From IMG/VR virus record IMGVR_UViG_3300028532_000031, positions 1 through 5,406 of that record: a stretch of 5,406 bases of DNA, one strand, 5' to 3'. The stretch's first letter is position 1, and each line of letters starts with the position of its first letter. A model generated the notes under the pieces. The model saw nothing but the letters and a program-made list of their open reading frames with translations. It was not told the DNA's origin and made no database searches. Shown here piece by piece: positions 1-5,406 of this stretch. Source of the DNA: a virus (lineage: Duplodnaviria; Heunggongvirae; Uroviricota; Caudoviricetes). The translations under genes and the position numbers were made by a program.

Positions 1-2
1 AT

Positions 3-1256
3 CCGGTACTGACGCGCCAGCTACTGATAGCAGGCGGTGCGTTGCTGGCAATGACTGCAACGATTGGCTCGTTGTCGCTGGTTATTGGGGTGCTTTACGG
101 GAAGCTGGCCACCCTGCGTCTTGGTTTTGACATTCTTACCCGGTCAATGAATGTCGTCAGGGTGTTGCCTGCGCTGTGGGGAATGCTGACGGGTTCCGTT
201 TCTTTACTGGGAGGCGCTATCGGGGCGCTGTTCAGTCCGGTTGGTCTTATCGTGGCTGCGCTTGCCGGAGCTGCTGTTCTTATCTGGAAATACTGGGATC
301 CCATCAGGGCATTTTTTGCCGGGGTGTTCAGCGGGATTATGGAAAGGCTGACCCCGTTGCGCGAAACCTTTGAACGGTTTGGTCCTGTTTTTGACGCAAT
401 CGGAAGCGGGATCAGCCAGGTGTTTAACTGGTTTAAATCGCTGCTGTCACCGATGGAGTCCAGCAAGGAAACGCTGGATAAATGTACCAGTGCTGGCGAG
501 ATATTCGGTAACGTTCTTGGTGGCGCGCTACAGCTTGTTCTGACGCCTGCAAAAATGTTGCTGGATACGCTGGCGTGGATACTTGAAAAACTCGGTGTGC
601 TTCCGGATGAAGCGGAAAGGGCGAGAAAGAAAATCGAAGACGCACAGCGTGCGGCCATTCTTCAGGACAAGGTTGCCTTGCTTCAGGGGGACCTGGCGAA
701 AATCAATCCGCCGAAGCCTGTGGAAAATAGCAATGGCACCGGAGGTGATAAACCCAAAGACAATAAACCGCTCACAGACAGCAATACCGGTACGCTGCGC
801 AGACTCAGCAAAATTGCTGATAACACAGGTAAGCTGGTTGATGAGACGAAAAAACGCATTGGCCCCGGCGATATTGTCTTTAAGAACCTGCCCCGCGCAC
901 TTGCTGTTCGTGGGGAGTGGCAGGAGCGGAAGATTGCGCAGGTCAGTAAGCCTGCCCCCGCAATTAATATCACACCCGTGGTCCCGGCTCCGCTGCCTCC
1001 GGCGCTGGTCCCTGTTGTTGCGGCCAGCTCCCGCCCGGTGGCGGAGGCCATACGATCGCCAGTGGCATCAGTTCCTGCAACTTCCCGTAACCGGGAGCCT
1101 GTTGCCTCCGGATTTGGCGGTGAAATTCATGTTCATCTGCATAACGTTGTTACGCAGAATCCCCGCGAACTGGCGAAACTGGTCGGTGAAATGGTCAGGG
1201 CAGAGGTGGAACGGCGCGCCCGTGCCGGACGTGGCAGTTTTTACGATAAAGATTGA
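3..1256 (+). CDS. Phage tail tape measure protein, C-terminal portion (5' end truncated by window edge)
   Basis: The reading frame is open from nt 3 with no in-frame stop before the window start, so the gene begins upstream; the ORF-track TTG at 42 is not a real start. Translation has long hydrophobic Gly/Ala/Leu segments (e.g. GAIGALFSPVGLIVAALAGAAVLIWKYW) and a Pro/Ala/Val-rich low-complexity stretch, as in tape measure proteins. It sits immediately upstream of a gpU-like gene, matching the P2 T-U order. Stop TGA at 1254-1256. Confidence 0.55.
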   Translation, partial: PVLTRQLLIAGGALLAMTATIGSLSLVIGVLYGKLATLRLGFDILTRSMNVVRVLPALWGMLTGSVSLLGGAIGALFSPVGLIVAALAGAAVLIWKYWDPIRAFFAGVFSGIMERLTPLRETFERFGPVFDAIGSGISQVFNWFKSLLSPMESSKETLDKCTSAGEIFGNVLGGALQLVLTPAKMLLDTLAWILEKLGVLPDEAERARKKIEDAQRAAILQDKVALLQGDLAKINPPKPVENSNGTGGDKPKDNKPLTDSNTGTLRRLSKIADNTGKLVDETKKRIGPGDIVFKNLPRALAVRGEWQERKIAQVSKPAPAINITPVVPAPLPPALVPVVAASSRPVAEAIRSPVASVPATSRNREPVASGFGGEIHVHLHNVVTQNPRELAKLVGEMVRAEVERRARAGRGSFYDKD

Positions 1257-1262
1257 GGAGTC

Positions 1263-1757
1263 ATGATCATGATGATGATCTACGGCATGTTTGTTTTTGA
1301 GCTGCGCACACTGCCGCATCAGCAGTTACAGCAAAACAAAAGCTGGCGGCATGTGAAAAATGAGCGCGTAAACCGCTCAGCAAGCTGGCAGTATATCGGT
1401 GCAGGTGATGATCGCATCGTGCTTTCTGGCGTGCTTTATCCTGAAATTACAGGTGGCGAAGTGTCGCTTTCGCTGCTGACCACGCAGGCATATACAGGAC
1501 GCCCCTGGCCTCTGATTGATGGTGTCGGGCAGATTTACGGCATGTATGTACTGACTGAAACGAATACGACCCGCTCCGAGTTTGATCGCTACGGTAAGGC
1601 GAAAAAGATAGAATTTTCACTGACTCTTGAACGCTGTGATGAGGATTTGCGGGAGCGCCTGCAATCCTCATCGTTCAGTGATATGCTGTCCGGCTTCAAA
1701 GATAAGGTCACATCATCCCTTAACAGCGCGGCCAGCTCCGTTAAAGGGCTGTTTTGA
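1263..1757 (+). CDS. P2 gpU-like phage tail protein
   Basis: 164-aa ORF with the pattern FVFELRTLPHQ...GAGDDRIVLSGVLYPEITGG...GRPWPLIDGVGQIYGMYVL, which I recognise as the phage P2 tail protein U family. GAGGAG at 1255-1260 is only 2 nt from the ATG at 1263, so the true start is more likely the ATG at 1269 or 1272. Stop TGA at 1755-1757. Confidence 0.7.
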   Translation: MIMMMIYGMFVFELRTLPHQQLQQNKSWRHVKNERVNRSASWQYIGAGDDRIVLSGVLYPEITGGEVSLSLLTTQAYTGRPWPLIDGVGQIYGMYVLTETNTTRSEFDRYGKAKKIEFSLTLERCDEDLRERLQSSSFSDMLSGFKDKVTSSLNSAASSVKGLF

Positions 1758-1764
1758 TTAACGC

Positions 1765-1794
1765 AAAACCGCTAATGGTCAGATTAGCGGTTTT
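1765..1794. terminator. Bidirectional intrinsic terminator hairpin between convergent gpU and invertase genes
   Basis: Perfect 12-bp inverted repeat AAAACCGCTAAT (1765-1776) / ATTAGCGGTTTT (1783-1794) around a 6-nt loop GGTCAG. On the plus strand it is followed by TTTTCATTTT; the A-run in the left arm gives a U-run for the minus-strand transcript. It starts 8 nt after the gpU stop and overlaps the invertase stop codon (1784-1786). Confidence 0.5.
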
Positions 1795-2383
1795 CATTTT
1801 CCTGAGTCTGCCTGGTTGTTTCTTCAGCCTGTATATCGCCTACAGGGTGATAACGATAAATCGTCGATATGCCGATGTCGTAAATGATCGCCAGTTGTTT
1901 CCTGTCATGACCGTTTTTAATCAGCCTCGCTATTTGCTCGTGTTGTTCTTTTGTCAACTTCGGGCGACGTCCGCCAATGCGTCCTTGTGCGCGTGCTGCT
2001 GCCAGTCCGGCCAGTGTACGCTCTACAATTAATTCACGTTCCATTTCGGCTAAAGCCCCCATGACGTGAAAAAAGAAACGCCCCATGGGTGTTGATGTGT
2101 CAATGCTGTCCGTCAGACTACGGAAATTAACACCTTTTTCCCGCAATTCCTCAATAAGCGTAATCAGGTGTTTCATACTTCTGCCCAGTCTGTCCAGCTT
2201 CCAGACAACCAGCGTATCTCCTTCTGATAGCGTTCTGAGCAGTTTTTTCAATCCCGGTCTGGCTGATTTCGTTCCGCTGATTTTATCTTCAAAAATCAGT
2301 TCACATCCTGCGCAGTTCAGTGCATTGCGTTGTAAATCCGTGTTCTGGTCATTTGTTGACACACGAATATAGCCAATTTGCAT
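1784..2383 (-). CDS. Serine DNA invertase (Hin/Gin/Cin/Pin family site-specific recombinase)
   Basis: 199-aa product starting MQIGYIRVSTNDQNTDLQRN, with the catalytic Ser in the RVSTNDQ motif, ...VVWKLDRLGRSMKHL..., ...SPMGRFFFHVMGALAEMERELI..., and a C-terminal helix-turn-helix (QLAIIYDIGISTIYRYHP). It is near-identical in pattern to Gin/Hin as I recall them. Start chosen at the ATG at 2383-2381 because AGAGGA (minus strand, 2397-2392) lies 8 nt upstream; the ORF-track extension to 2593 has no such support. Confidence 0.92.
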   Translation of the reverse strand: MQIGYIRVSTNDQNTDLQRNALNCAGCELIFEDKISGTKSARPGLKKLLRTLSEGDTLVVWKLDRLGRSMKHLITLIEELREKGVNFRSLTDSIDTSTPMGRFFFHVMGALAEMERELIVERTLAGLAAARAQGRIGGRRPKLTKEQHEQIARLIKNGHDRKQLAIIYDIGISTIYRYHPVGDIQAEETTRQTQENENR

Positions 2384-2397
2384 AAAAAACATCCTCT

Positions 2398-2961
2398 TTG
2401 TTTCGTGAAAAATACATAGTTGGTATAGGTAGGGATAAAAACGAAAACGTTGGTTTGGGGGAAGGCTCTGCGCTGCCCGTTGGAGTGCCCGTTCCATGGC
2501 CCTCAGCCACGCCGCCAACGGGGTGGCTGAAATGTAACGGCGCAGCATTTTCTTCTGAAGAATACCCGGAATTGGCAAAGGCTTACCCGACAAATAAATT
2601 GCCTGATTTACGCGGTGAATTTATCCGTGGCTGGGATGATGGGCGTGGTGTGGATGCGGGGAGAGCAATATTATCAGCTCAGGGCGATGCCATACGTAAT
2701 ATCTATGGTGAGTTCAGAACTGTAAATACTGAAAATTATTCAATATGGGAAGGAATGAGCACGTTTAAGGGGGCTGTGGTGCCTTTAAATCCCTCCACAA
2801 ACAATAGTTATTTCTCCTTAGTCAAAAGTATGGTGACTGAAAGGGCAGACGGCGCTGTTTACCCAAAAGTGATCGGCCTTGATGCTTCAAAAATTGTTCC
2901 AACTGCAAATGAAAATCGCCCACGCAACATTGCGTTTAATTACATCGTAAGGGCGGCATAA
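2398..2961 (+). CDS. Tail-fibre C-terminal cassette 1 (startless, promoterless alternative receptor-binding segment)
   Basis: No ATG or RBS; the ORF-track start is a TTG. Encodes a phage tail-collar-like region (PVGVPVPWPSATPPTGWLKCNGAAFSSEEYPELAKAYPTNKLPDLRGEFIRGWDDGRGVD), then a unique central segment, then the shared C-terminal end ENRPRNIAFNYIVRAA. The NIAFNYIVR-type end is one I recall from enterobacterial side tail fibre proteins. Confidence 0.75.
   Translation: MFREKYIVGIGRDKNENVGLGEGSALPVGVPVPWPSATPPTGWLKCNGAAFSSEEYPELAKAYPTNKLPDLRGEFIRGWDDGRGVDAGRAILSAQGDAIRNIYGEFRTVNTENYSIWEGMSTFKGAVVPLNPSTNNSYFSLVKSMVTERADGAVYPKVIGLDASKIVPTANENRPRNIAFNYIVRAA
2413..2440 (-). promoter_or_regulatory. 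Candidate sigma70 promoter for the invertase gene, adjacent to putative crossover site 1
   Basis: On the minus strand: -35-like TTTTAT (plus coordinates 2440-2435), 16-nt spacer, -10-like TATGTA (2418-2413), about 30 nt upstream of the invertase ATG. Both hexamers are weak matches; this is a by-eye call only. Confidence 0.25.
2444..2465 (+). other. Putative invertase crossover site (copy 1, invertase-proximal) containing the 22-bp motif AAAACGTTGGTTTGGGGGAAGG
   Basis: The motif recurs at the 5' boundary of every plus-strand cassette. Its right half GGTTTGGGGGAA is the reverse complement of TTCCCCCAAACC, which resembles the Hin/Gin half-site consensus TTnTCnAAAACC. The inner part AAAAC-G-TT-GGTTT is partly palindromic. 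Copy 1 carries an extra in-frame AAAACG immediately 5' of the motif. Confidence 0.45.
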
Positions 2962-2982
2962 AAACGTTGGTTTGGGGGAAGG
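2961..2982 (+). other. Putative invertase crossover site (copy 2), AAAACGTTGGTTTGGGGGAAGG
   Basis: Exact repeat of the 22-bp motif, 517 bp after copy 1. It overlaps the stop codon of cassette 1 and begins the cassette 2 reading frame. Confidence 0.45.
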
Positions 2983-3433
2983 CTCTGCGCTGCCCGTTGG
3001 TGTACCTGTTCCATGGCCCTCAGCCACACCGCCAACGGGGTGGCTAAAATGTAACGGAGCAGCATTTTCTTCTGAAAAATACCCCAAACTGGCAAAGGCT
3101 TACCCAACGTTAAAATTACCGGATTTACGGGGTGAGTTTATCCGTGGCTGGGATGACGGACGTGGTGTGGATGCCGGGCGACAATTATTATCTTCACAGG
3201 GGGATGCAATAAGAAATATTGAGGGGTTCGCAGATGGCGGGATCGGCATGTCTTTTGATGCAATCAGAGGGGCTTTTTACGATGCAGGAACACGATCTGC
3301 GAGAATGCCGAATAACACAACTGATATAGGCAAAACCGATGACCTTGGATTCGACGCCTCTCGTGTCGTGCCAACAGCTAATGAAAACCGTCCTCGTAAT
3401 ATTGCCTTTAATTATATCGTAAGGGCGGCATAA
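2972..3433 (+). CDS. Tail-fibre C-terminal cassette 2 (startless)
   Basis: Same architecture as cassette 1: conserved collar-like 5' part, divergent middle (…GFADGGIGMSFDAIRGAFYDAGTRSARMPNNTTDIGKTDDLGFDASR…), conserved end ENRPRNIAFNYIVRAA. Begins in frame within motif copy 2; the ORF-track start is a TTG. Confidence 0.75.
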   Translation: MGEGSALPVGVPVPWPSATPPTGWLKCNGAAFSSEKYPKLAKAYPTLKLPDLRGEFIRGWDDGRGVDAGRQLLSSQGDAIRNIEGFADGGIGMSFDAIRGAFYDAGTRSARMPNNTTDIGKTDDLGFDASRVVPTANENRPRNIAFNYIVRAA

Positions 3434-3454
3434 AAACGTTGGTTTAGGGGAAGG
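3433..3454 (+). other. Putative invertase crossover site (copy 3), AAAACGTTGGTTTAGGGGAAGG (one substitution)
   Basis: One-mismatch copy of the motif, 472 bp after copy 2, overlapping the stop codon of cassette 2 at the boundary with cassette 3. Confidence 0.4.
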
Positions 3455-3473
3455 TTCGGCGCTGCCTGTTGGT

Positions 3474-3911
3474 GTGGCCGTTCCATGGCCCTCAGCCACG
3501 CTGCCAGCGGGGTGGTTGAAATGTAACGGCGCAGCATTTTCTTCTGAAATGTACCCCAATCTGGCAAAGGCCTACCCCACCAATAAATTACCGGATTTAC
3601 GGGGCGAATTTATTCGCGGCTGGGATGACGGACGGGGCGTTGATAATGGGCGCAACCTACTGTCTGCACAGTCTGACGCTATTCAGAATATAGTTGGCAC
3701 TTTTGGGCGTACTCAGCTTTTTAAAGATGCGTTTAATTCAGGACCATTTAGTCAAACTGACTCTATATTATCAGTAGGCTTACAACCAACTGAGATCATT
3801 GAAGGATATGGTGCTTCTGTATGGACATTCGACGCCTCTCGCTCAGTTCGCACAGCATCTGAAACACGCCCCCATAACATTGCGTTTAATTACATCGTAA
3901 GGGCAGCATGA
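3474..3911 (+). CDS. Tail-fibre C-terminal cassette 3 (startless)
   Basis: Same architecture; divergent middle (…GTFGRTQLFKDAFNSGPFSQTDSILSVGLQPTEIIEGYGASVWTFDASR…); ends ETRPHNIAFNYIVRAA. The in-frame reading extends back through motif copy 3 (KNVGLGEGSALPVGV…); the ORF-track start is a GTG. Confidence 0.75.
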   Translation: MAVPWPSATLPAGWLKCNGAAFSSEMYPNLAKAYPTNKLPDLRGEFIRGWDDGRGVDNGRNLLSAQSDAIQNIVGTFGRTQLFKDAFNSGPFSQTDSILSVGLQPTEIIEGYGASVWTFDASRSVRTASETRPHNIAFNYIVRAA

Positions 3912-3932
3912 AAACGTTGGTTTGGGGGAAGG
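3911..3932 (+). other. Putative invertase crossover site (copy 4), AAAACGTTGGTTTGGGGGAAGG
   Basis: Exact copy of the motif, 478 bp after copy 3, overlapping the TGA stop of cassette 3 at the boundary with cassette 4. Confidence 0.45.
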
Positions 3933-4380
3933 CTCTGCGCTGCCCGTTGGTGTACCTGTTCCATGGCCCTTAGAAACACCGCCAACGGGGTGGCTGAAAT
4001 GTAACGGCGCAGCATTTTCTTCTGAAATGTATCCCAGACTGGCAAAGGCCTACCCCACCAATAAATTACCGGATTTACGGGGTGAATTTATTCGCGGCTG
4101 GGATGATGGGCGCGGGGTGGATGCCGGAAGGGGCATCTTAAGCATGCAGGGGTGGTTAACAGGAAGTCATTATCATAATATTCGGTCATGGGATGCGTGG
4201 GATAACACGGTACTGGTGCCAAATGACAAAGGAGGGGATAGTCTGTTGTCGACAGATAACGCCGTCCGGCAAGGTGCAATTAACGGTAGATTTACCAGTC
4301 AATACAGAACGGAATCCTCAGAGGGGAATGAAACCCGCCCACGCAATATTGCCTTCAATTATATTGTGAGAACCGCATAA
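3922..4380 (+). CDS. Tail-fibre C-terminal cassette 4 (startless), translationally coupled to the tail fibre assembly gene
   Basis: Same architecture; divergent aromatic/His-rich middle (…GWLTGSHYHNIRSWDAWDNTVLVPNDKGGDSLLSTDNAVRQGAINGRFTSQYR…); ends ETRPRNIAFNYIVRTA. Its TAA stop (4378-4380) overlaps the ATG of the next gene (TAATG). Confidence 0.75.
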   Translation: MGEGSALPVGVPVPWPLETPPTGWLKCNGAAFSSEMYPRLAKAYPTNKLPDLRGEFIRGWDDGRGVDAGRGILSMQGWLTGSHYHNIRSWDAWDNTVLVPNDKGGDSLLSTDNAVRQGAINGRFTSQYRTESSEGNETRPRNIAFNYIVRTA

Positions 4381-4991
4381 TGAATAACGCGATATTAAAT
4401 GATGACCTTATTGCCGTACAGGCAGGAAACATCGTCGTTTATAACTATGATGGTGAGACACGGGAATATATTTCCGAATCAACTGAATATCTTGCTGCGG
4501 GTGTCGGTATTCCGGCAAATTCCTGTTTAGATGCCCCGGGCGCACATAAAGCGGGCTATGCTATCCGCCGTTCGGAGAATTTAAATTCATGGGAGTATAC
4601 GCCAGATCATCGTGGTGAAACCGTCTATAGCACTGATACGGGAAACACCGAAGAAATCACGACGCTGGGTGACTACCCGAAAAATACAACCACTATCGCC
4701 CCGTTAACACCATACGATAAATGGGATGGTGAAAAATGGGTGACGGATACCGAGGCACAGCATAGCGCCGCAGTAGAAGCGGCAGAAACACAGCGCCAGT
4801 CGCTGATTGATACTGCAATGGCTTCCATTAGTCTGATTCAGTTGAAGTTGCAGGCCGGGCGGAAGTTGACGCAGGCAGAAACCACCCGGCTTAACGCCGT
4901 GCTGGATTATATAGACGCACTGAACGCAATGGATATAAACATGGCATCAGATATCAACTGGCCGGAAATACCACTGGCAGCAGCCAGTTGA
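4380..4991 (+). CDS. Tail fibre assembly protein (Tfa chaperone; P2 gpG / Mu U-like role)
   Basis: 203-aa ORF directly downstream of and overlapping a tail-fibre cassette, the classic fibre-chaperone position. The C-terminus has the Tfa-like …DINWPEIP… pattern. Family assignment is from position and recalled motif, not a search. Confidence 0.65.
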   Translation: MNNAILNDDLIAVQAGNIVVYNYDGETREYISESTEYLAAGVGIPANSCLDAPGAHKAGYAIRRSENLNSWEYTPDHRGETVYSTDTGNTEEITTLGDYPKNTTTIAPLTPYDKWDGEKWVTDTEAQHSAAVEAAETQRQSLIDTAMASISLIQLKLQAGRKLTQAETTRLNAVLDYIDALNAMDINMASDINWPEIPLAAAS

Positions 4992-4997
4992 ATATAA

Positions 4998-5406
4998 CTA
5001 AGCCGCCCTCACGATATAGTTAAATGCAATATTGCGGGGGCGGGTTTCACTACCACCTGTGTTACCAATACTTCCTCGTGAATGAAGCGTTGGTGATGGA
5101 ATCAAACTCCCTCCTGTATTTGTGGCATCAAGCCCCCTGCCTTGTGTATATGTTTTTTTGAAAATCGTGGCCAACTCCCATTCATCCTTTGTGTCATATC
5201 CATCGTTAGCTACAACAATATGGCGGTGTTTTTCCAACATCCCGGTTTGAATGCTCAATAAAGCGCGTGCTGCATCAATTCCTCGCCCATCATCCCAGCC
5301 ACGAATAAATTCACCCCGTAAATCCGGTAATTTATTGGTGGGGTAGGCCTTTGCCAGTCTGGGATACATTTCAGAAGAAAATGCTGCGCCGTTACATTTC
5401 AGCCAC
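4998..5406 (-). CDS. Tail-fibre C-terminal cassette 5, inverted orientation; 5' end continues beyond the right window edge
   Basis: The minus-strand frame is open to the window end and reads …WLKCNGAAFSSEMYPRLAKAYPTNKLPDLRGEFIRGWDDGRGID…, then a unique middle, then SETRPRNIAFNYIVRAA with stop TAG (plus 4998-5000). The ORF-track start at M5369 is internal. The first 123 nt are the reverse complement of cassette 4 (3990-4112) with one mismatch. Confidence 0.8.
   Translation of the reverse strand, partial: WLKCNGAAFSSEMYPRLAKAYPTNKLPDLRGEFIRGWDDGRGIDAARALLSIQTGMLEKHRHIVVANDGYDTKDEWELATIFKKTYTQGRGLDATNTGGSLIPSPTLHSRGSIGNTGGSETRPRNIAFNYIVRAA

Follow-up and report, generated by a model that had tools for sequence, protein, structure and literature searches.

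Convergence of the tail and fibre operons at a hairpin in a P88-like P2-family prophage with a probable inversion of the FI-U block

Why is the tail gene U of a P2-like element followed by a hairpin and an oppositely transcribed DNA invertase, and not by D? The question is raised by a stretch of 5,406 nucleotides (the window; positions 1 to 5,406 of IMG/VR record IMGVR_UViG_3300028532_000031), the features of which are listed in Table 1. The initial annotation had proposed that a host-range switch was grafted onto the end of the tail module in a mosaic prophage or an R-type tailocin cluster. Every part that it named was found, with coordinates exact or off by a few bases, and it was right that D is not the next gene after U, the hairpin and then the convergent invertase standing there. 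The reading reached here is that the window very probably spans the site at which two late transcription units converge in a complete prophage of the P2 family, P88-like and Xuanwuvirus-type, and that U faces the invertase because the FI-FII-E-E′-T-U block is inverted.

Table 1. Positions and properties of the features in the window
Feature	Position	Strand	Properties
Tape measure gene T, 3′ part	1–1256	+	Frame 3, 418 codons in the window; stop TGA 1254–1256
gpU tail gene	1263–1757	+	Pfam PF06995 Phage_P2_GpU, E 5.5e-39, full model; phrog_76, E 2e-74
Hairpin	1765–1794	both	Perfect 12-bp stem, 6-nt loop: AAAACCGCTAAT-GGTCAG-ATTAGCGGTTTT; flanked by an A run and a T run
Serine DNA invertase, Gin/Hin/Cin/Pin family	2383..1784	−	199 aa; Ser9 in MQIGYIRVSTNDQ
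Spacer, invertase start to first crossover site	2384–2443		Position only
Crossover site 1	2444–2463	+	AAAACG-TT-GGTTTGGGGGAA; opens the cassette array
Crossover sites 2–4	2961, 3433, 3911	+	Further copies of AAAACG-TT-GGTTTGGGGGAA
Four tandem silent fibre-tip cassettes	~2444–2961, 2961–3433, 3433–3911, 3911–4380	+	Repeat families D1, D2
tfa, single tail fibre assembly chaperone gene	4380–4991	+	Caudo_TAP, E 1.2e-33; phrog_105, E 1e-93
Fifth tip cassette	4998–5406, runs off the window	− (strand of fibre gene H)	Collar domain; inverted repeats I1–I5

BLASTP and profile searches bore out that the products of T and U are of P2 type. The open frame of T (3–1256, + strand) is cut by the left end of the window, leaving the C-terminal 418 amino acids; in relatives the gene is 2808 nt long. 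Its product resembles PHROG tape-measure families (phrog_28, E = 5e-43, and other tape-measure PHROGs) and was aligned with residues 583–792 of the 935-aa gpT of Fels-2 (BLASTP, E = 5e-37). A Pfam search of the T product found no domain; T is annotated as the tape measure in P88 and in the prophages of E. coli CB9615, E2348/69 and 2014C-3075. gpU, matched by PF06995 and phrog_76, shares 46% identity with its P2 counterpart and likewise 46% with that of Fels-2. Its true start is probably the ATG at 1269, 8 nt after GAGGAG at 1255–1260, as judged from Shine-Dalgarno spacing and the RefSeq annotation of relatives. In the lineage of the window gpU is the final gene of the F operon.

A terminator had been proposed 8 nt after gpU; a hairpin is there, at a spacing of 7 nt from the stop codon. 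The computed free energies are −15.6 kcal/mol for the + strand and −16.9 kcal/mol for the − strand (z-scores of −3.2 and −4.3), and none of 200 shuffled sequences folded as well on either strand. The invertase stop codon (1784–1786) lies inside the 3′ arm. The hairpin, picked out by a terminator scan, is a putative intrinsic terminator shared by two convergent transcription units. Read on the − strand it is followed by a short T run, TTTT and then GCGTT. P88 and PhiR44_2 retain the hairpin, and in distant relatives across the clade U also precedes hairpins, of unrelated, non-homologous sequence. The 30-nt hairpin had no exact match in species-representative genomes, an uninformative outcome; a locus search based on gpU was used instead.

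The invertase has the build of its family, in which an N-terminal catalytic domain (Ser9/10) is joined to a C-terminal HTH in a serine recombinase of ~190 aa. It contains Resolvase and HTH_7 domains (Pfam, E = 1.4e-51), matches the DNA invertase family phrog_125 (E = 5e-98) and, over its full length, the Mu Gin structures 3UJ3 and 4M6F (E ~1e-90), and is 81% identical to the Fels-2 invertase. The convergence described by the initial annotation was recovered: U, on the + strand, faces the invertase and the H-side cassette, both on the − strand. The spacer upstream of the invertase presumably holds its promoter, given its position; a promoter scan of 2384–2443 called no consensus promoter, and a sigma-70 scan of the window did no better than on shuffled sequence.

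Four matches to the crossover sequence were found in the window against none expected. In the CB9615, E2348/69 and 2014C-3075 prophages this sequence occurs in both orientations on the flanks of each cassette and of the H constant part, with oppositely oriented copies preceding the − strand tips and standing at the H boundary. The sites thus have the make-up of an invertase switch: half-sites round a 2-bp core, in inverted orientation and flanking the variable part of a fibre gene. The window's own − strand partner site would lie just beyond position 5406. Each of the four + strand cassettes encodes a Pfam Collar (tail-collar) domain (E = 1e-14 to 1e-16) and has a conserved RPRNIAFNYIVRAA end, and the ATG of tfa overlaps the stop codon of the fourth. 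The counterpart of the fifth cassette in the closest relative, the 2014C-3075 prophage, is silent and lies downstream of the tip fused to H. Cassette orientation and number vary among the three prophages, an indirect pointer to inversion.

The prophage context of the window is taken from these relatives, the prophages of O55:H7 CB9615, EPEC E2348/69 and 2014C-3075, which are 95–98% identical to it in DNA over the parts that align. All three contain genes for scaffold, major capsid, small and large terminase subunits, portal and head completion, as well as holin/endolysin/spanin and replication genes, contiguous with the segment resembling the window, and on this gene content the element is very probably a prophage, the first of the two alternatives initially offered. 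In each, one strand carries the genes from capsid to H together with the invertase and the other FI to U, with D and ogr beyond FI. The D homologue that the initial annotation advised looking for is present in the relatives, divergent from FI, as an intact ORF of 369 aa with 97% DNA identity to D of P88. A truncated D and a defective prophage were considered and rejected; the short product assigned to D by PGAP is a matter of the start-codon call. The insertion site is not fixed, the CB9615 and E2348/69 prophages adjoining ihfA and the 2014C-3075 prophage flk. A three-site, four-variant inversion system has been demonstrated by sequencing and PCR in a P2-like prophage of E2348/69 (PMC4272514). 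The anatomy of the aligned E2348/69 prophage fits that description (three sites, spans of ~1.6 and 2.0 kb); the strain has another P2-like prophage, and the published locus is linked to the aligned one by anatomy and not by coordinates.

The layout is widespread. Of 5426 complete E. coli genomes, 621 have the U/invertase junction (a 651-bp query across it covered to 80% or more) and 1355 (25%) the divergent D/FI junction. Species-representative genomes were surveyed with gpU as query, which finds relatives sharing short peptides with the query gpU: the inverted layout was present in 40/40 loci with gpU 55–97% identical, from ~19 genera of Enterobacterales, while U was followed by D, in P2 order, in 7/7 loci with gpU 39–46% identical. 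An invertase convergent on U within 400 nt was seen at 8 loci in 6 genera. Among phages, Shae_phiSM has both the U/invertase junction and the divergent D/FI sequence, and D is divergent from FI in Serratia phage KSP20. Phages with the layout are viable: P88 is a plaque former whose virion has a head and a contractile tail (PMC5285337), and Shae_phiSM has been described as active (PMC6456863). The arrangement is therefore no odd mosaic, as had been supposed, being fixed across a large clade of P2-like prophages of Enterobacterales; it is ordinary and already sequenced. Among the papers covered by a literature search, none commented explicitly on the flipped F operon.

The proposed course of events starts from the order of P2 and Fels-2, V-W-J-I-H-G, a variable slot (in Fels-2 the invertase) and FI-FII-E-E′-T-U-D-ogr, all on one strand. 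This order is probably ancestral, judging from its distribution among outgroups and not from a rooted tree. Relative to it, the lineage of the window has the segment running from the FI promoter to U inverted. U is thereby last in its operon, which ends at the putative hairpin terminator, and D, which would have been left behind, is divergent from FI over an intergenic region of 157 nt. The fibre operon (H, the invertible tips and the Gin-type invertase) enters the same hairpin from the opposite side, and both units would terminate there. On this account the invertase and cassette array is the ordinary host-range switch of the fibre end and keeps its customary position relative to H; recombination between oppositely oriented AAAACG-TT-GGTTTGGGGGAA sites is expected to fuse alternative C-terminal tips to the H constant part. 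That the switch was grafted onto the end of the tail module did not hold up, as Fels-2 has it at the same place, the end of the H/fibre operon, and what is inverted is FI-U.

Uncoupled from the F operon in this clade, D must, we infer, have a late promoter of its own. The only conserved TTTGTTGTCRCC box seen lies ~85–95 nt upstream of FI; in the window, matches to this box, sought as a late promoter, were no more frequent than expected by chance. Between U and the fibre end lies the variable cargo slot of the lineage, the counterpart of the fun(Z) slot of P2; its contents vary, from a remnant of the invertase 3′ end only in PhiR44_2 to a glycosyltransferase in Chuche and a serine acetyltransferase in 2012C-4227. 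Crossover-like sites were sought at both ends of the FI-U block and none was found, the sites being confined to the cassettes, nor was any inverted repeat found pairing the two ends; a flip made by the invertase was rejected for want of either.

The window alone shows just tail, fibre and invertase genes, as would a carotovoricin-like or xenorhabdicin-like R-type tailocin cluster with an invertible fibre segment and without head genes, and carotovoricin Er, as cited in PMC4272514 and PMC13280938, has invertible fibre tips. Against this, the relatives that are 95–98% identical where aligned carry head, packaging, lysis and replication genes contiguous with the segment, P88 has the same junction and is a plaque-forming virion with a head (PMC5285337), and the variable region of xenorhabdicin has been described between the sheath gene and an N-terminal fibre fragment, which is the co-directional P2 layout (PMC13280938). 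The kosakonicin paper gives nothing on gene orientation. The tailocin half of the initial proposal is thus very unlikely. A palindromic hairpin exactly at the junction of two convergent units could also point to an assembly chimera joined at ~1760–1800, since palindromes can cause misjoins, and such a join had been named at the outset as what would undo the reading. The junction proved uninterrupted: positions 1–2377 of the window form one unbroken alignment in P88, P884B11, 503458, 520873, 500465-2 and Shae_phiSM, the T-U/invertase junction is a single BLAST piece in P88 and at least seven other phage records, and the 621 complete E. coli genomes that have it were assembled independently, one being 100% identical over the 651 bp. 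A misjoin is accordingly so improbable as to be negligible.

The flip of FI-U might instead be a recent accident at strain level, for example by the invertase acting at secondary sites, which left a defective prophage. A Gin-type invertase, predicted to be active, does lie at one breakpoint, and PGAP gives D as a short product of 266 aa in three genomes; the layout is nevertheless shared by all 40 related loci of ~19 genera, by a quarter of the complete E. coli genomes and by the viable phages P88 (PMC5285337) and Shae_phiSM (PMC6456863), which makes this account highly improbable. A last alternative gives the head-on arrangement a function, late transcription from the FI promoter leaking through the hairpin into the invertible segment, where it would either provide tfa with a transcript in those states of the array that orient tfa away from H or run antisense to the invertase in lytic growth. 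It would agree with the presence of only one tfa, which in the window, as in each of the three reference assemblies, is antisense to H. Because there is no crossover site between 4991 and 4998, tfa is never co-oriented with the cassette that it abuts tail-to-tail, and promoter and TTTGTTGTCRCC box scans of the window found no other promoter for tfa. However, a strong hairpin, conserved in close relatives, separates U from the array; P88 has the flipped operon yet two chaperones, and PhiR44_2 has it without any switch, so the layout predates such coupling and does not depend on it. The two forms, taken together, are unlikely; if either were true, the head-on arrangement would be used rather than tolerated.

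With the inversion of FI-U as the preferred reading, the absence of gpD directly after gpU marks a lineage of very common enterobacterial P2-like prophages, present in about one quarter of complete E. coli genomes, and does not point to a tailocin, graft or misassembly. Cargo and host-range modules of these prophages can be sought between U and the fibre end. Beyond correct annotation the significance is small.

The nearest known systems are P88, P884B11, 503458, 520873, 500465-2 and Citrobacter phage Shae_phiSM (Peduoviridae, Xuanwuvirus), in which the T-U-hairpin-invertase segment is 91–92% identical to that of the window (P88: 92.4% over 1–2377). P88 has the gene order of the window lineage: FI-U lies on the strand opposite to the fibre operon and invertase, and D diverges from FI. 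Its invertible segment is a simple one of two tips and two chaperones; in the window there are four directly repeated sites, a single chaperone and no fewer than five tips. The E. coli relatives share with the window the same architecture and multi-tip arrays with one tfa, but tips differ in identity and in number (3 in E2348/69, 5 in CB9615 and 6 in 2014C-3075), and one window cassette (~3190–3392) has no match in 2014C-3075. Multi-site arrays of this kind resemble Min of p15B. Mu Gin, P1 Cin, e14 Pin and p15B Min belong to the same recombinase family and act on sites with two half-sites and a 2-bp core, placed at the boundary between the constant and variable parts of a fibre gene, but on another phage backbone. 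Fels-2 (Felsduovirus) likewise has a Gin-type invertase at the end of the H/G fibre genes and inverted alternative tips; there, in contrast, the invertase is followed by co-directional FI-FII-E-E′-T-U-D-ogr. P2 has the identical set of late tail genes (FI, FII, E, E′, T, U, D, ogr; V, W, J, I, H, G), but its U overlaps D in one operon, fun(Z) fills the G-FI slot, an invertase is lacking, and no block is inverted.

Chromosomal prophages of O55:H7 CB9615, EPEC E2348/69 and 2014C-3075 (the closest relative) match the whole window at 95-98% identity over the aligning parts. Each of these prophages carries, contiguous with the segment, genes for scaffold, major capsid, both terminase subunits (small and large), portal and head completion, and likewise for holin, endolysin, spanin, tail completion, the V-W-J-I baseplate, fibre H and replication. 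Phage P88, which is inducible and plaque-forming and has an icosahedral head and a contractile tail (PMC5285337), shares this layout. Read from the flanks of these relatives, the window appears to belong to a complete P2-family prophage and not to a tailocin. The initial annotation had entertained both readings and proposed looking for capsid and packaging genes; these were found beside the segment in the three aligned relatives and, with the lysis genes, bear out the prophage, while capsid, terminase and the headed, plaque-forming virions of P88 speak against the tailocin.

Features of the window and the basis of each assignment
Feature	Position	Strand	Basis
Tape measure T, 3′ part	left edge to 1256	+	open frame; tape-measure PHROGs
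gpU	1263-1757	+	PF06995, E 5.5e-39, whole model covered
Perfect hairpin at the gpU/invertase junction	1765-1794		sequence reading and folding
Serine invertase	2383..1784	-	Resolvase and HTH_7 domains
Four tandem fibre-tip ORF fragments	starts 2444, 2961, 3433, 3911	+	tail-collar; repeated sequence at each start
Tfa-type chaperone (tfa)	4380-4991	+	profile searches
Fifth tip cassette, tail-collar ORF fragment	beyond 5406 down to 4998	-	profile search

The T frame was matched to tape-measure PHROGs by profile search (phrog_28, E 5e-43) and aligned as the counterpart of the C-terminal third of Fels-2 gpT; a Pfam search of this frame gave no match. The phrog_28 and PF06995 matches confirm the identities first assigned to T and U, gpU being 46% identical to that of P2 and to that of Fels-2. 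Along its entire length the invertase matches crystal structures of Mu Gin (E about 1e-90); it has 199 aa, versus 193 aa in the Mu Gin PDB chains and 185 aa in Fels-2. Its acidic C-terminal tail (…QAEETTRQTQENENR; window 1784-1843) is coded partly inside the terminator hairpin. All parts of the originally described layout were recovered in order; the spacing from the gpU stop to the hairpin is 7 nt, one base off the earlier value. The hairpin includes the stop codon of the invertase; its folding energy is -15.6 kcal/mol for the + strand and -16.9 kcal/mol for the - strand, more stable than 200/200 shuffles on each. A chimeric join at 1760-1800, once considered, is excluded: positions 1-2377 give one unbroken alignment (91-92% identity) with Escherichia phage P88, Xuanwuvirus P884B11, 503458, 520873, 500465-2 and Citrobacter phage Shae_phiSM, which has been described as active and temperate in Citrobacter rodentium (PMC6456863), and a 651-bp query with the junction at its centre reached ≥80% coverage in 621/5426 complete E. 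coli genomes, in one of them with 100% identity.

Gene orders of P2 and Fels-2 were checked in the reference genomes. P2 carries V W J I H G, fun(Z), then FI FII E E′ T U D ogr on a single strand, with U overlapping D; Fels-2 carries I H G G′ H′, the invertase, then FI FII E E′ T U D ogr, all co-directional. The window lineage has capsid through H, tips and invertase on one strand, FI FII E E′ T U on the opposite strand, and D and ogr past FI, again on the capsid/H/invertase strand. The switch (invertase plus fibre-tip cassettes) thus lies where the fibre operon ends, as in Fels-2; its position is unchanged, and it is the block from the FI promoter through U that has been turned round. The proposal that a switch had been grafted onto the tail module is thus replaced by an inverted FI-U block, and the gpD homologue that the initial annotation sought lies beyond FI on the opposite strand. 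CB9615 D is an intact 369-aa ORF with 97% DNA identity to P88 D, and starts 157 nt from the FI start. RefSeq/PGAP calls gpD in CB9615 (locus L001, 14905-16014), E2348/69 and 2014C-3075 at 264-266 aa ("VgrG/Pvc8 family") with a spurious partial ORF adjoining; the short (266-aa) D reflects a late start call only, the 369-aa frame being intact.

A divergent D/FI junction was found in 1355/5426 complete E. coli genomes, in eight distinct phages and in Serratia phage KSP20. A gpU-based search of species-representative genomes gave 55 loci, in each of which D, FI, invertase, I, J and capsid were placed by tblastn. Where gpU was 55-97% identical to that of the window, D (-) was divergent from FI (+) and the fibre/baseplate genes were convergent on U in 40/40 informative loci (Salmonella, Citrobacter, Enterobacter, Klebsiella, Kosakonia, Kluyvera, Trabulsiella, Yokenella, Serratia, Pantoea, Mixta, Izhakiella, Symbiopectobacterium, Edwardsiella, Providencia, Morganella, Photorhabdus, Xenorhabdus and others). 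Where it was 39-46% identical, D lay directly 3′ of U, as in P2 and Fels-2, in 7/7 loci (Acinetobacter, Halomonas, Idiomarina, Chitinimonas). An invertase gene was convergent with U and within 400 nt of the U stop in eight loci from six genera. The flipped layout is a fixed clade trait and not a recent accident; we infer, solely from the outgroup distribution, that the P2 order is ancestral. In most loci U is directly followed by a hairpin, unrelated in sequence, which fits U being the operon end throughout the clade. Neither a crossover-like site nor a pairing inverted repeat was found at the two ends of the FI-U block, so nothing points to the invertase as the cause of the inversion. Published phage genomes and a quarter of complete E. 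coli genomes already show this arrangement, which is not novel; no comment on the flipped F operon was found in the literature searched, and it merits a small comparative-genomics remark at most.

One locus, L012 (NZ_JBQPOM010000071.1), is labelled Vagococcus sp. WN89Y, a Firmicute, and holds this enterobacterial prophage with gpU 97% identical, probably through contamination or a mislabelled assembly. The 157-nt divergent D/FI region of CB9615 (L001, 16015-16171) and its equivalents in L012 and three further loci (L011, L013, L025) share a conserved TTTGTTGTCRCC box, which lies about 85-95 nt before the FI start and is similar to a portion of the P2 pF activator site.

At the start of each tip stands AAAACG-TT-GGTTTGGGGGAA, which has two half-sites around a 2-bp core, like gix/hix/cix sites. 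The window has four + strand copies against zero expected, one identical site before each of four directly tandem cassettes (2444-4380); in the relatives it recurs, oppositely oriented, at the boundary of the H constant part and of the - strand tips. From this anatomy, recombination of two sites in opposite orientation would invert the DNA between them and give H another tip. For a P2-like prophage of E2348/69, sequencing and PCR have demonstrated a system of three sites and four variants (PMC4272514); three sites also occur in the E2348/69 prophage aligned here, with spans of about 1.6 and 2.0 kb, near the published 1.8/2.2 kb, a likeness by size in a strain with two P2-like prophages. Tips number three in E2348/69, five in CB9615 and six in 2014C-3075, and the window cassette at ~3190-3392 has no match in this last, closest relative. 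In 2014C-3075 the H-fused tip is frameshifted just ahead of the conserved C-terminal motif (locus L007, 24201-24330), and one G is missing from the crossover site preceding the next cassette.

Only one tfa is present, antisense to H, in the window, CB9615, E2348/69 and 2014C-3075. It lies tail-to-tail with the - strand tip cassette (window 4380-5406), 6 nt apart with no crossover site between them; therefore that tip can never be expressed with tfa downstream in the same orientation. No tfa promoter was found in the window. Transcripts of tfa could come from read-through of the flipped F operon, but this is disfavoured, since a strong hairpin intervenes, P88 has two chaperones and PhiR44_2 has no switch.

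The contents of the gap between U and the fibre operon differ from relative to relative, which makes it a variable slot. In phage PhiR44_2 (locus L006, 7758-7844) the flipped block is present together with the hairpin and 58 nt from the 3′ end of the invertase gene, followed by G and H, which suggests loss of the switch by deletion of invertase and cassettes. Phage Chuche (locus L009, 7080-7814) has a glycosyltransferase in this slot and E. coli 2012C-4227 (locus L010, 9465-10037) a serine acetyltransferase, both likely surface-modifying cargo. Compared with Fels-2, the invertase is 81% identical and gpU only 46%; therefore the switch module moves between backbones. The slot it occupies is the counterpart of the fun(Z) slot of P2.
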